DNA of 20,000 nt from Xylographa opegraphella. Its lineage: Eukaryota. Where the stretch lies: positions 363,088 to 383,087 of the forward strand of contig JALDZX010000019.1 of the NCBI GenBank assembly GCA_022813865.1, read 5' to 3'. A program made the translations under genes and the position numbers. Below the pieces are notes generated by a model that was given only the letters and a program-made list of their open reading frames with translations, was not told the origin of the DNA and searched no databases. Of this stretch, positions 3,433 to 5,649 are shown piece by piece; position 1 is the stretch's first letter, and every line of letters starts with the position of its first letter.

Positions 3433-5649
3433 TTAAGCTCCCGGTGGTGGGGGAGGCGGCAAATCGCTTGGAGGCTATCAACTGTTAGTGACTATTGATC
3501 GTTCTGGTTGGGTGTAAGACTTACCGGAGGGGGAGGAGCATCCCCAGGCGGCGGAGGAGGTGGAGGATTTCCCGCAGAGCCGTTGCCATTGTACTGGAAC
3601 AGTGCATTGAGCCCGGGTGGAGCACCAAGACCCACCGCGGCCAGTCCAGGAGGAGCACCCATACCTCCAGCGTATCCATTACCGTTACCATAGCCTGGGT
3701 AGGCCCCGTAACCACCCGGAGGCGGAGGAGGAGGCGCAGCTTGCTGTTGCCAGGGAGCAGCGCCGCTGTTCTGCTGCCCATGGCCATAGCTGTCCCCACC
3801 ACGCCCAGCAGCGGCCCACGGCGGAGCAGATCCACCATCTGGAGCACCATAATCATCACGATGACTACGATCGTCTCCCCCGCGTTGCCAAGGCGCTGCT
3901 GCGCCTGTGGGTCCACGTTGCCACGGCTTAAGATCACCTCGATCACCTTCACCGTATCCATCTTGATTGTCATAGCCTCCAGGCCCTGCTTCGATGCGCT
4001 GAGGAGCTTGCCCATTGGCGGCAGGGGCACCACCAGAAAGTTCTTGCATGAGTTGCTGTGGAATGTTAGGATGTGATATTTACCCAGAAAGGTTTGACTG
4101 ACCTCATATTCCCGATCAACAGCATCACCACCACCAATACGTCCTGCGGGCGCACGATCAGGACCACCAATAGGCGGGCCGTTACGCCAGTCAGCTCCAC
4201 GCTGCCTATCAGGACAGTCTCGAGCCATATGTCCTGCGTTGCCACACACTCTGCAAATGATGTTGGCCGTGAAATTGCGCTGTTCAGGACAATCGTATTT
4301 GCGGTGACCGATTTGGCCACCTATGAGTATTAGAAGCTGTCGAAGATTTCAACTGGTATTGCAATCTGTACTTACAGTTTTGACAAGCTTGATTCTCGTC
4401 ATCGCGCAATGTTCCGTTGAGAGCTGCAAGCTCTCGAAGCTGGTTTCGTTTGAGCTCATTCTGTCCCTCGGGGATCGAGGCAGCCTTCGTAGCGTTAGCA
4501 GGTCACGAGTTGCTAGCGTTCCGCTGAACTTACTGTTTCAATGACATTGTGGATCAACTTCTTTGCTTTGTTAACTTTTTCTTCGGTATCGGCCATTATC
4601 AAACAATGCAAATCTTCTTCCTGGTTACTGGTGTGAGCAGCATCAGATCGACCTTTTCCTTCTTTGACTGATCCTTTCCCACGAATGGCAATCTTGGCTT
4701 GCGACTCAGTCTCCATCTTTTTAAGTGTATTGCCTCGAGGCCCGATAAGTAAGCCGACTTCAGTACACGAACGCAAGCTAAGTGTTAGTCTATGTAGGTC
4801 AATACGTATAGCAATGTGTATGTAATATGAGCAGGGTTAGTGGTAACATATGCTGCTTCCTTCGTGAAAAGCGGCAAGCATCGACAAAAAGCATGATGAG
4901 AAAATAAGAAAAGAGGTTAGGAGTTAGAGGGTTAGTTATCATACTGAAGTTAATCTCTGGGTAGTCATTGACAGGTACATAGACTTTCTCCTGTGTCTTA
5001 GTAGGACGTCTGTAGTCCGAGGGCGGATGATAGTTAGGAATAATCTTCATGGCTTTCTCAATCTGCCTGTGGCGCTCATCTTCAAGACGCTTGCGATACC
5101 GGTATTCGCGTGTGTTCACGCGACGACCAAAGTTATCATACTGAGGTGGAGGAGACGGAGACCTATATCCATCCATGAGTTCTTGTTCTAGCTTACGGGG
5201 AAAGGGTACGAACCTATCACCATCTGCAGGAACAACATCATCTATTCTTAGCTTCTCGCTAATCTCTTGAATCCGTAGATGCAACGTGTAAGCCTCAAGC
5301 TGTTCGTTAGTCATATTCGCCTTGATCATAGTAGGCAATCCCATCAAGCCAGCAGCTTTATTTTCAGATGCATCTCCCCATCGATTTCTCTTCTTGCGTC
5401 GCCTCTCACCCGCATCAACAGGATCGGCTTCGCAGCAGTTAGTTGTATGGTTCCTCCTAAGAGAGCCAAAGACCTACGACGCTCTGGACTACGGCCACGC
5501 TTATAGCCATCGGACAAGCCAGTCGGAGGCTGAGCTGCACTGTAGCCACCACCATCGTCACCAGGTGTAGAGTCGCCTCCAAAGCGACGGCGATTGCCTA
5601 GAGGAATGTTATTCGAGCCGGTGATTCCCTGACCTCTCTGCCACGCCAT
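3433..5649 (-). CDS. MSL5: Branchpoint-bridging protein / splicing factor 1 (SF1/BBP)
   Basis: Introns 5428-5477, 5163-5213, 4758-4944, 4485-4533, 4321-4375, 4056-4102 and 3475-3524 give one continuous frame. It contains the ULM KKRNRWG, RSPSPPP, the KH domain [22 protein letters not shown]...[16 protein letters not shown]2 [12 protein letters not shown], two CCHC knuckles ([28 protein letters not shown]) and a Pro/Gly-rich tail. Confidence 0.97.
4758..4944 (-). promoter_or_regulatory. SF1 intron 3 with clustered branchpoint-like motifs and competing 3' splice sites (candidate autoregulatory element)
   Basis: 187-nt intron with GTATGA donor. CTAAC motifs at 4931-4936, 4923-4928, 4916-4921, 4836-4842 and 4784-4790. 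Pyrimidine tract at about 4898-4915. TAG acceptors at 4790-4792 and 4778-4780 are out of frame; AAG at 4758-4760 is in frame. The intron is certain, its regulatory role is inferred. Confidence 0.7.

Follow-up and report, generated by a model that had tools for sequence, protein, structure and literature searches.

The window, the whole 20-kb stretch of DNA analysed here, contains on its minus strand a gene for the branchpoint-bridging protein SF1/BBP, the MSL5 orthologue, with a coding region at positions 3433..5649 delimited by the gene model, Pfam matches and identity with a public protein; all features described below lie on the same strand. The model runs from the start ATG at 5649 to the stop TAA at 3435-3433 and comprises 8 exons and 7 introns, all GT..AG, encoding 575 aa. 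The product of exon 3 matches Pfam SF1-HH (PF16275, E = 1.3e-23), the N-terminal helix-hairpin that binds U2AF65/Mud2, and the product of exon 4 matches KH-I_KHDC4-BBP (PF22675, E = 2.9e-20), a BBP-type KH domain of type I whose GxxG loop is visible in the translation as GPRG. The CCHC zinc knuckles, annotated as PF00098 on the public protein P0029, are seen in the window translation as two C-x2-C-x4-H-x4-C motifs, and a P-rich C-terminal end is present. P0029 ('Splicing factor 1 [Xylographa opegraphella]', 592 aa) is an exact match to the model with intron 2 left unspliced, has 17 residues more than the 575-aa product and removes intron 3 at identical borders. The two domain matches and the identity with P0029 confirm the assignment of the gene to SF1/BBP in the original prediction, which had been made from the sequence alone. 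Proteins of this family bind the branch-site core cooperatively with U2AF65 on an adjoining pyrimidine tract, a mode of branch-site binding by SF1/BBP and U2AF65 reportedly described by Berglund et al. in 1998.

The seven introns measure, in order, 50, 51, 187, 49, 55, 47 and 50 nt. Intron 3 (4758..4944, phase 1; gene model and orthologue comparison) splits the KH domain and, as predicted, stands out by its 187 nt from the other six, which span 47-55 nt. It begins GTATGATAACTAACCCTCTAACTCCTAACC, and its 5' splice site, GTATGA (4939..4944), carries a non-consensus A at +6 within a conserved GTA[TC]GA. Three CTAAC copies begin just behind the donor at +10, +18 and +25 (4935-4931, 4927-4923 and 4920-4916), where sequence and conservation delimit three putative decoy branch-site motifs: ACTAAC (4931..4936, branch A at +13), TCTAAC (4923..4928, branch A at +21) and CCTAAC (4916..4921, branch A at +28). 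A pyrimidine-rich tract, read directly from the sequence, occupies 4884..4915 on the 3' side of this cluster. Two further copies lie at 4840-4836 (+105) and 4788-4784 (+157). The former belongs to the middle branch-site motif CACTAAC (4836..4842; sequence and conservation), on the 5' side of which a consensus fold places a hairpin, ATGCT..GCTTTT/GGAAGC..AGCAT (4850..4881); the latter belongs to GACTAAC (4784..4790), which from its conservation is likely the genuine branch site, at a distance of 27 nt from the 3' splice site. A conserved TTGA lies at 4799..4802, and the distal motif is followed by ACTTAG (4778..4783), which places a conserved AG 7 nt past the branch A. This AG is unused in the productive mRNA, and its use as acceptor would add 20 nt and shift the frame. 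The 3' splice site itself, TACTGAAG (4758..4765), is recognizable by conservation as a variant of a branch-site-like motif, TACTAAAG / CACTAACAG, that abuts the AG.

The other six introns hold 1, 0, 1, 0, 1 and 1 copies of CTAAC, never more than the single copy that had been claimed for each. Over both strands of the window the motif occurs 26 times against 26.9 expected from shuffles, and about 0.12 copies are expected per 187 nt of one strand, whereas intron 3 has 5. By sequence match the array is self-referential, the repeated motif being the branch-site core bound by the encoded family.

Conservation of the donor-side cluster

The comparison set consisted of 58 distinct orthologous introns 3, from 57 metagenome loci and the window. 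They are 137-264 nt long, with a median of 185 nt among the 56 distinct genomic orthologues compared with 50-53 nt at the other intron positions. In a protein tree the loci with the cluster fall into well-supported clades with named Sordariomycetes, Dothideomycetes, Leotiomycetes, Eurotiomycetes and Lecanoromycetes, and public Aspergillus models with read-through tails carry the range to the Eurotiales, at the peptide level only.

The donor reads GTAYGA in 50 of the 58 introns 3 and in 1 of the 178 other introns of the gene. The first CTAAC starts at +9 or +10 in 54/58 and the second at +17 to +21 in 45/58, with [TC]CTAAC in all but one of those 45, while an additional copy starts at +22 to +41 in 32/58; at least two copies are found within the first 45 nt in 52 of the 58 introns and at least three in 22. 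Scored by motif match, CTAAC averages 4.5 copies per intron 3 versus 0.36-0.62 at the five other intron positions scored. Its presence in the first 32 nt is likewise confined almost entirely to intron 3 (55 of 56 genomic introns, versus 0-1 per other position, 2/203 in total). The pyrimidine tract behind the cluster is also general, with a mean C+T content of 0.75 at +31 to +60 against 0.59 in the middle part of the 58 introns, in agreement with the original prediction.

Pairwise identity among 49 of the sequences (1176 pairs) is 72% at +7 to +22, 42% at the fourfold sites of exons 3 and 4 and 31% at +41 to +70. Conservation of the 5' cluster beyond neutral sequence, which had been proposed as a check on the prediction, thus holds across five Pezizomycotina classes, and these identities indicate that purifying selection acts on the donor-side block of intron 3. 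In the alignment, the Pleosporales type differs by a 1-nt indel that shifts the reading frame and leaves the motifs in place, and because the frame changes while the motifs stay, the constraint on the block is non-coding. An alternative C-terminus as the cause of the conservation was ruled out on the same ground, together with the variable positions of the stop codons. We also considered a CCTAAC in exon 3, formed by Pro-Asn codons, as part of the device; it is present in 26 of 48 sequences encoding PNY against about 21% expected from codon use, and was set aside as too weak.

The presumed branch A is never closer than 25 nt to the donor in 142 other introns of this gene, where its median distance is 40 nt, whereas the A's of the cluster lie at +13, +21 and +28/30. 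The argument that the motifs are too close to the donor to serve as branch points is borne out by this comparison: because the cluster A's are nearer to the donor than the presumed branch A's of those introns, the tandem branch-site copies are probably unusable for branching and hence not used for splicing.

Elements in the middle of the intron and at the acceptor

The middle CTAAC is present in 55 of the 58 introns and reads CACTAAC in 38 of those 55, the Pleosporales form being CTAACCCTAACCC. The distal motif reads NACTAAC in every one of the 55 cases scored. Its distance to the productive AG is 20-29 nt (57 introns scored) versus a median of 11 nt in the 142 other introns, and together with the GTAYGA donor this spacing can be read as a hallmark of a regulated intron. 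An AG is found 5 to 7 nt past the distal branch site in 55 of 57 introns 3, most commonly in the form ACTAACAC(T)TAGCT; as an acceptor it would lengthen the mRNA by 13-22 nt, a length not divisible by three in 43 of 55 cases, and some public gene models take it where the frame stays open. At the acceptor, 40 of the 58 introns end in ACTAA[AC]?A?G. The acceptor motif of the window, TACTGAAG, deviates from this ACTAA consensus, and the junction after CACTAACAG is the one used in a spliced contig, L044, as judged against the genomic contig L054. In 42/58 introns a TTGA precedes the distal branch site by no more than 30 nt, usually by 10-13 nt, compared with 4/58 in a control stretch.

The hairpin before the middle motif is likely real and moderately supported. 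A consensus fold of 21 sequences shows compensatory changes in 5 of 8 pairs across two groups, and a two-tier stem in the Leotiomycete group has 91% pairing, compared with 16-66% at slid positions, with weak covariation within that group (double changes in five cells, and change on both sides in 2 pairs). Folding of the whole intron with its exon edges gave a structure no better than shuffles (z = -0.35). Inspection of the alignment by eye gave no sign of a nested intron (stwintron) or of recursive splicing, neither a conserved GT donor within the intron nor an AG|GT being seen. Base-pairing between the donor and the sequence preceding the distal branch site was likewise rejected by eye, as the complementary ATCATAC occurs in some Leotiomycete sequences and is not general.

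The weak GTAYGA donor, the hairpin, the AG 5-7 nt past the branch site and the motif overlapping the acceptor were not part of the original prediction, which had placed the action of the array at the donor. Because all four are present as well, the donor is just one among several places at which the device might act.

Retention of intron 3

Retention was assessed in contigs that resemble transcripts, which represent orthologous loci from organisms other than that of the window. Four of five cDNA-like contigs keep intron 3 and none of the five keeps any other intron. L003 is 99.6% identical to the genomic contig L007 over 523 nt spanning exon 3, intron 3 and exon 4, and lacks introns 1 and 2 while containing intron 3. 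L026, L027 and L061 have lost all five other introns and kept intron 3, with relatives only 77-83% identical, so that for these three a genomic loss of the other introns is a possible alternative to a cDNA-like origin. L044 is fully spliced and 99.5-100% identical to genomic L054. Specific retention of intron 3, which had been put forward as a check, was therefore found in transcript-like contigs from which every other covered intron is gone. L003 also carries an odd circular permutation. A back-splice was rejected as its origin, since the two ends are joined at non-canonical sites, one 3 nt inside intron 4 and the other in the middle of exon 1.

Retention of the intron in the window would add 48 residues and end at TGA 4801-4799, the first in-frame stop, which read-through places within the TTGA motif described above; the protein would be truncated before the KH GxxG loop, as predicted. 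Among the 58 orthologues, 57 acquire an in-frame stop upon retention and the remaining one shifts frame, and an unproductive isoform appears from the contig sequences to exist as RNA in relatives. Short database proteins that cover exons 1-3 continue into intron 3 in 114 of 118 cases and are spliced there in 4, a count that mixes real transcripts with gene-finder models made on genomic contigs and is biased by the length window of <325 aa. Truncated SF1 models ending in intron 3 are found in at least 11 named species, and of 45 full-length public SF1 models, 12 have a wrong junction at intron 3.

A candidate sensor of SF1 and its counterparts in known systems

We favour, with some confidence, the interpretation that intron 3 is an ancient, regulated and retention-prone ('detained') intron that acts as a sensor of the SF1 it encodes. 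Because branch-site copies that seem unusable sit in the one intron that is often unspliced, this intron probably lets SF1/BBP limit its own production. The original autoregulatory reading is in this respect partly supported: from the anatomy, conservation, retention and premature stop described above we infer that SF1 itself is the regulator, as we do the binding of SF1 to the array, the direction of the feedback and what becomes of the RNA.

In the mechanism that we propose, the decoy heptamers 7-30 nt past the weak GUAYGA donor, together with the pyrimidine tract, would mimic a 3' splice-site region that has no usable AG. The likely hairpin ends in another CACUAAC, the presumed real branch site is unusually distant from the acceptor (20-29 nt) and is followed after 5-7 nt by an AG that seems unusable, and one more UACUAA(A/C) overlies the acceptor AG. 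When free SF1, with U2AF65/Mud2, is scarce, only the distal ACUAAC, the best site, would be occupied, and intron 3 would be spliced to yield full-length SF1. With SF1 in excess, the weaker and misplaced sites would be occupied too: SF1 near the donor could form a dead-end bridge with U1 or block later steps at the donor, and SF1 at the acceptor could cover the AG, so that intron 3 would be retained. The retained RNA, with its stop before the KH GxxG loop, might be kept in the nucleus and degraded by way of the bound SF1-Mud2 or, if exported, be removed by NMD, and the net outcome would be negative feedback on the level of SF1. The available text of PMC2377449 treats the BBP-Mud2 pair in yeast and links BBP and Mud2 to nuclear retention of pre-mRNA, and that of PMC13322074 couples yeast Mud2-Bbp to the nuclear exosome via Thp3-Csn12. 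We give about even chances to the more specific proposition that a decoy branch-site intron, older than the divergence of the five Pezizomycotina classes, measures free SF1, traps dead-end complexes resembling commitment complexes and makes of the transcript an RNA that is kept in the nucleus and degraded.

Each motif of the array matches the consensus for pairing with U2 (the GUAGUA box) as well as it matches the SF1 site, and because the motifs are also perfect partners of U2 snRNA, the species sensed could be U2 snRNP, or general spliceosome capacity, with excess U2 locking dead-end A-like complexes and SF1 output being matched to U2. A precedent is found in the minor-spliceosome circuit, where, in the part of PMC5473595 available, tandem splice signals are read by an snRNP (U11 on the USSE). 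We nevertheless consider a U2 sensor unlikely: it leaves the location in the SF1 gene unexplained, and the pyrimidine tract behind the cluster suits the SF1-U2AF65 pair, which acts ahead of U2. The array could instead have a positive role, in which the extra sites gather SF1 so that a long and weak intron is spliced when SF1 is scarce, retention being the default that SF1 relieves. Additional SF1 sites could equally well aid splicing, the weak donor and distant branch site imply an intrinsically poor intron, and retention in 4/5 cDNA-like contigs suits one that is off by default. Positive feedback on an abundant essential factor would however be unstable, a motif over the acceptor AG (40/58) and motifs 7-30 nt from the donor should hinder splicing, and the self-regulating splicing factors covered by the accessible portions of PMC6547761, PMC3967051 and PMC10477243 use negative loops; a positive role is accordingly rated as quite unlikely.

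It is improbable that the intron works as an acceptor or branch-site switch, in which the middle CACUAAC or the proximal AG would give frameshifts or the cluster would serve as branch points for the donor of intron 2 and cause skipping of exon 3. Although the proximal AG is conserved (55/57), is mostly frame-shifting (43/55) and is used by some public gene models with an open frame, none of the transcript-like contigs has such a junction and the sole spliced contig uses the terminal AG; the first AG past the 5' cluster is 11 to 110 nt away, and therefore no conserved acceptor accompanies the cluster. Finally, the branch-site appearance would be incidental if the intron hosted a non-coding RNA, for instance a snoRNA, or an element acting at the DNA level, for instance a Myb site of the telomere-repeat type. 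The intron is long for a short-intron genome and has a conserved hairpin and TTGA, CTAACCC resembles the CCCTAA repeat, and the middle motif of the Pleosporales reads CTAACCCTAACCC. Against this, an Rfam search of intron 3 returned no credible known RNA family and nothing to mark it as a snoRNA (best E-values 2.8 and 9.8, far under gathering scores), the alignment holds no long invariant guide-like block outside the heptamers, the cluster is spaced by 8 and 7 nt rather than 6, and the motifs keep fixed distances from donor and acceptor on the RNA strand, which neither a hosted RNA nor a DNA element would need. We regard either as very improbable.

The SF1-sensing intron would, if correct, constitute the first autoregulatory circuit described for SF1/BBP, and would show splicing repressed in a new way, by a core 3' signal placed at the 5' end of the same intron. 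In the literature searched, which included few subscription journals, we found no account of autoregulation or retention for SF1/BBP/MSL5/bpb1 in fungi. Feedback is well described for SR proteins, hnRNPs and the minor spliceosome, and little is known of how the levels of core non-snRNA early factors are set. The intron would also provide a natural fungal reporter of free SF1 activity, compact at ~190 nt and amenable to genetics, and a natural experiment on the recruitment of SF1/U2AF or U2 beside a donor, with relevance to how short the donor-to-branch distance can be and to bridging across introns. It would further account for the widespread annotation error at this position, with 12/45 wrong junctions and at least 11 species with truncated models.

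A likeness exists with the C. elegans uaf-1 gene, in which MacMorris, Zorio and Blumenthal reportedly described in 1999 an alternative exon with repeated UUUUCAG/R and found that RNA containing the array stays nuclear. On that account, both are genes for a factor that binds a splice signal and both contain an array of that factor's own binding site; the uaf-1 array lies in an included exon of an animal gene for U2AF, whereas the SF1 array lies in an intron in fungi. Binding of UAF-1/UAF-2 to UUUUCAGR is given in the available part of PMC2762039.

The USSE of U11-48K (SNRNP48) and U11/U12-65K (RNPC3) is described in the accessible text of PMC5473595 as a highly conserved tandem splice signal, unused for splicing, that when bound leads to unproductive isoforms, nuclear retention and negative feedback. 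As far as that text goes, both systems have a tandem splice signal inside a gene whose product belongs to the machinery reading that signal, and the unused tandem signals have their counterpart in the two or more CTAAC copies within the first 45 nt in 52/58 introns 3, where non-use is suggested by distance. U11 snRNA reads the USSE, a U12-type 5' splice site, which through exon definition switches on a 3' splice site upstream, whereas the signal in intron 3 is a branch site, the motifs sit directly behind the donor and over the acceptor, and the outcome observed is retention of the whole intron. The lineages differ as well: the 65K 3'UTR region is conserved across 30 tetrapod species, and the SF1 element is found in filamentous ascomycetes.

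For intron 4 of SF3B1 in human erythroblasts, the portion of PMC6097662 at hand describes a nuclear isoform that retains the intron and makes up a large part of the transcripts, and a decoy-exon model in which intronic sequences resembling splice sites are proposed to engage the real sites non-productively. SF1 would likewise be a splicing-factor gene with one retained intron that holds sequences resembling splice signals. The SF3B1 decoys, to judge from that portion, are cryptic exons with both splice sites, whereas those of SF1 are bare heptamers matching the site of the encoded protein.

Autoregulatory unproductive splicing (AS-NMD, through poison exons or retained introns) is widespread among splicing regulators according to the accessible parts of PMC6547761, PMC3967051 and PMC10477243, and intron 3 has in common with it the enrichment of a self-motif (by motif match), a retained RNA, a premature stop and conservation above neutral. 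The cases in those parts are mostly SR proteins, hnRNPs, RBM39 and Rbfox, whereas the candidate here, SF1, is a fungal protein and a core factor of early recognition; and unlike in those cases its cis element, with a putative dependence on SF1, is a core splice signal in a non-functional position.

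The SF1/BBP gene and its third intron

The SF1/BBP coding sequence lies on the minus strand of the window, running from the ATG at 5649 to the TAA at 3435–3433, and specifies a product of 575 residues. It is interrupted by seven introns of 50, 51, 187, 49, 55, 47 and 50 nt, all of them GT..AG, and domain searches placed the SF1 helix-hairpin domain on exon 3 (E = 1.3e-23) and the BBP-type KH domain on exon 4 (E = 2.9e-20). With intron 2 (51 nt, frame open) retained, the product is identical to the 592-residue public record P0029, "Splicing factor 1 [Xylographa opegraphella]", from this lichen-forming Lecanoromycete, and the intron 3 borders in that record are those of the original prediction. 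The two agree only when 5163–5213 of the minus strand, which is intron 2, is taken as coding for 17 extra residues. An intron is present at this position in 70 of 71 genomic orthologue loci and is absent from the cDNA-like contigs; most likely P0029 keeps intron 2 by mistake.

Intron 3 spans 4944–4758 on the minus strand and starts with GTATGATAACTAACCCTCTAACTCCTAACC. It carries the branch-site core CTAAC at +10, +18, +25, +105 and +157 from the donor, and the other six introns carry, in order, 1, 0, 1, 0, 1 and 1 copies. Since the window as a whole has 26 CTAAC against 26.9 predicted from shuffles, five in 187 nt of one strand represent a strong local excess. The retained form reads on for 48 codons to a TGA at 4801–4799. 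Gene model, motif count and read-through agree in every detail with the length, CTAAC copies and in-frame stop originally described. In exon 3, about 90 nt upstream of the intron 3 donor, Pro-Asn codons form a CCTAAC (5032–5037), kept in 26 of 48 orthologues with PNY there, where codon use in these exons predicts about 21%; it weakly suggests a further site.

Conserved architecture of intron 3

Searching metagenome contigs with the KH exon as query gave 411 relatives, of which the best 80 were analysed. The exon 3–exon 4 interval was obtained from 76 of these 80 loci and the window, leaving out three loci without exon 3 and one permuted locus (L003). The 60 distinct intervals include 58 long introns of 137–264 nt (57 from the loci, plus the window), on which the architecture counts are based. 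In this interval L071 has a 97-nt intron without CTAAC, and L044 and L077 have no intron.

The intron 3 donor is GTA[TC]G[ACG] in 58/58 distinct long introns and GTA[TC]GA in 50/58, the latter being found in 1 of 178 distinct introns elsewhere in these genes. The first CTAAC begins at +9 or +10 in 54/58 and another begins at +17 to +21 in 45/58; the first 45 nt hold at least two copies in 52/58 and at least three in 22/58. The pyrimidine tract originally noted behind this cluster is borne out by 75% C+T at +31 to +60 over the 58 introns. A middle CTAAC, preceded by a probable hairpin, is found in 55/58 and reads CACTAAC in 38 of those 55. The distal motif near the acceptor is NACTAAC in every case found (55 scored) and lies 20–29 nt from the acceptor (57 introns scored); in other introns the presumed branch A is usually 9–12 nt from it (median 11, n = 142). 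An AG follows the distal branch A by 5–7 nt in 55/57, and 40/58 introns close with ACTAA[AC]?A?G, for example TTACTAAAG or CACTAACAG. In the 30 nt before the distal motif, and mostly 10–13 nt from it, TTGA occurs in 42/58 introns versus 4/58 in a control stretch.

This conserved TTGA (window 4797–4802), often TTTGATCA, provides the window's retained form with its first in-frame stop. In Pleosporales-type introns (L007, L012, L047 and L066) the middle element is CACTAACCCTAACC, which amounts to the telomere-type CCCTAA repeat twice over; it probably represents two adjacent branch-site motifs, the alternative being an element read at the DNA level.

Across the distinct genomic copies of intron 3 the median length is 185 nt and the mean number of CTAAC 4.5, and 55/56 have a copy inside the first 32 nt. 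The five other intron positions scored have median lengths of 50–53 nt and means of 0.36–0.62 CTAAC, and such early copies in 1/48, 0/53, 0/48, 0/25 and 1/29. Identity was compared over 1176 pairs of 49 sequences, intron positions being taken without alignment. It reaches 72% at +7 to +22, versus 42% at fourfold-degenerate sites of exons 3 and 4, which answers the question of conservation beyond neutral sequence raised with the original prediction; it is 38% at +23 to +40 and 31% at +41 to +70. The GTATGATNNCTAAC and GTACGGAACTAAC types differ by a 1-nt indel that alters the frame and keeps the motifs, and the first in-frame stops of the retained form fall at varying places, which places the constraint on RNA or DNA and rules out a peptide-level constraint on the 5' block.

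Retention of intron 3 and its taxonomic breadth

Five of the best 80 loci look like cDNA. Contigs L026, L027 and L061 (1.9–2.3 kb) have intron 3 (207, 245 and 189 nt) but none of the other five, with untranslated ends present in L027 and L061; their relatives L079 and L070, 77–83% identical to them, have the other introns. Across 523 nt from exon 3 through intron 3 to exon 4, L003 matches genomic L007 at 99.6% identity; it keeps intron 3 but has neither intron 1 nor intron 2 of L007. L044, 99.5–100% identical to genomic L054, has lost every intron including the 194-nt intron 3, and its junction ..AACTTCA|TTGGT.. falls exactly after CACTAACAG. Retention is seen in four of the five contigs and affects intron 3 alone; with one spliced, both forms exist. 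The retained intron brings an in-frame stop in 57 of the 58 distinct introns, and the remaining one shifts the frame.

Two of these contigs have further peculiarities. L003 (1–1068) is circularly permuted, its last ~118 nt repeating its first, in the order exon 3 tail, intron 3, exon 4, mid-exon 1, exon 2, exon 3. Compared with L007, it joins a point 3 nt into intron 4 to mid-exon 1, off canonical splice sites, and could be an RNA, circular or chimeric, or a product of faulty assembly. L044 (1–1092), set against L054 (685–2268), shows four more gaps of ~121, 61, 54 and 91 nt upstream of the SF1 start codon, reflecting either a long multi-intron 5' leader or an upstream gene joined in the contig.

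The protein tree has 86 rows (59 locus rows, window included, and 27 named proteins), loci without exons 2–6 and duplicates being left out. Cluster-bearing loci fall in supported clades with Apiospora (Sordariomycetes), with Alternaria, Pyrenophora and Bipolaris (Dothideomycetes), with many Helotiales (Leotiomycetes), with Endocarpon and Pyrenula (Eurotiomycetes) and with Lecanoromycetes. The cluster is absent from the two outliers on long branches, L071 and L077, and as distant relatives without the device they could help to date its origin. The L071 intron is an ordinary GTAAGT intron at the same site; in L077, introns 1 and 2 are long (143 and 102 nt) and carry no CTAAC clusters.

A second protein search, for short proteins (<325 aa) covering exons 1–3, gave 1847 matches at E <= 1e-20, and 118 of the 120 listed were examined. 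At the peptide level, with transcripts mixed with gene-finder output and a bias from the length limit, 114 of the 118 read past ..EINF into intron 3, the other 4 being spliced at this point. The tail in 92/114 (e.g. STELTPLT) is what CTAAC at +10 and +18 would encode. Among the matches listed, truncated models come from three Aspergillus species, with tails as in the window, and from Bipolaris sorokiniana, Trematosphaeria, Lophiostoma, Westerdykella, Calycina, Clarireedia and two Xylariales. The feature is a genuine one, its conservation is ancient and its retention specific.

Public gene models err at intron 3. At least 11 named species have truncated SF1 models ending inside it (P0148–P0237), and 12 of 45 full-length proteins (at least 500 aa) have a junction other than ..INF[IV]GLLIGPRG.. 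(including P0025, P0041, P0049, P0051, P0069–P0072, P0074 and P0115), some using the AG just behind the branch site.

A candidate SF1 sensor and related systems

Branch-site binding by SF1/BBP was reportedly described by Berglund in 1998. It is established that SF1/BBP binds the branch-site heptamer with U2AF65/Mud2 on the neighbouring pyrimidine tract and bridges to U1 at the donor (PMC2377449; PMC13322074). The branch A's of the cluster lie at +13, +21 and +28/30; in other introns of these genes the presumed branch A is never less than 25 nt from the donor (median 40, n = 142). By this distance, at least the first two copies are probably unusable as branch points, in line with the original argument that they sit too close to the donor. 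For this reason we read the cluster and pyrimidine tract as a pseudo 3' region, which would draw SF1–U2AF next to a deliberately weak donor, while the ACTAA motif over the acceptor would form a second blocking site. With SF1 low, the best-placed ACUAAC would be used and intron 3 removed; with SF1 high, the extra sites would fill, leaving the intron in an unproductive RNA. Copy 2 of the 5' cluster reads [UC]CUAAC, without the A of ACUAAC, in all but one of the 45 introns that have it at +17 to +21. A motif without this A should have lower SF1 affinity, which would fit sites that fill only at high SF1. In yeast, nuclear retention of pre-mRNA is linked to BBP and Mud2 (PMC2377449) and the nuclear exosome is coupled to the Mud2–Bbp pair (PMC13322074). 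By analogy, the retained RNA may be held in the nucleus or passed to the exosome, and if exported, it should be an NMD target, its stop being early and followed by four introns.

We have little doubt that intron 3 is a conserved functional element built of branch-site motifs, and it is very probably a regulatory intron. That it is an SF1 sensor giving autoregulation by retention is the best reading and a probable one, if unproven. The same array could instead report on U2 snRNP rather than SF1, which is unlikely, and a small chance is left to extra sites that promote splicing. A switch of acceptor or branch choice is very improbable, and an intron serving as host of an RNA, or as a DNA site, is scarcely credible.

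For the SF1 sensor that we favour, no description of SF1/BBP/MSL5/bpb1 autoregulation or retention in fungi was found in the literature searched, most subscription journals lying outside its scope. One parallel to the array is offered by the uaf-1 exon of C. elegans, with its repeated U2AF sites. Nearest among known systems is the USSE, found in the U11-48K and U11/U12-65K genes, a conserved tandem splice-signal repeat, unused for splicing and read by machinery to which its gene contributes, leading to unproductive isoforms, nuclear retention and negative feedback (PMC5473595). A common logic is also found in the decoy exons of SF3B1 intron 4 (PMC6097662) and the AS-NMD loops of RNA-binding proteins. 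SF1 intron 3 differs from these systems in its signal, which is the branch site, in where that signal stands, behind the donor and over the acceptor of one intron, and in factor (SF1), lineage and outcome (retention).
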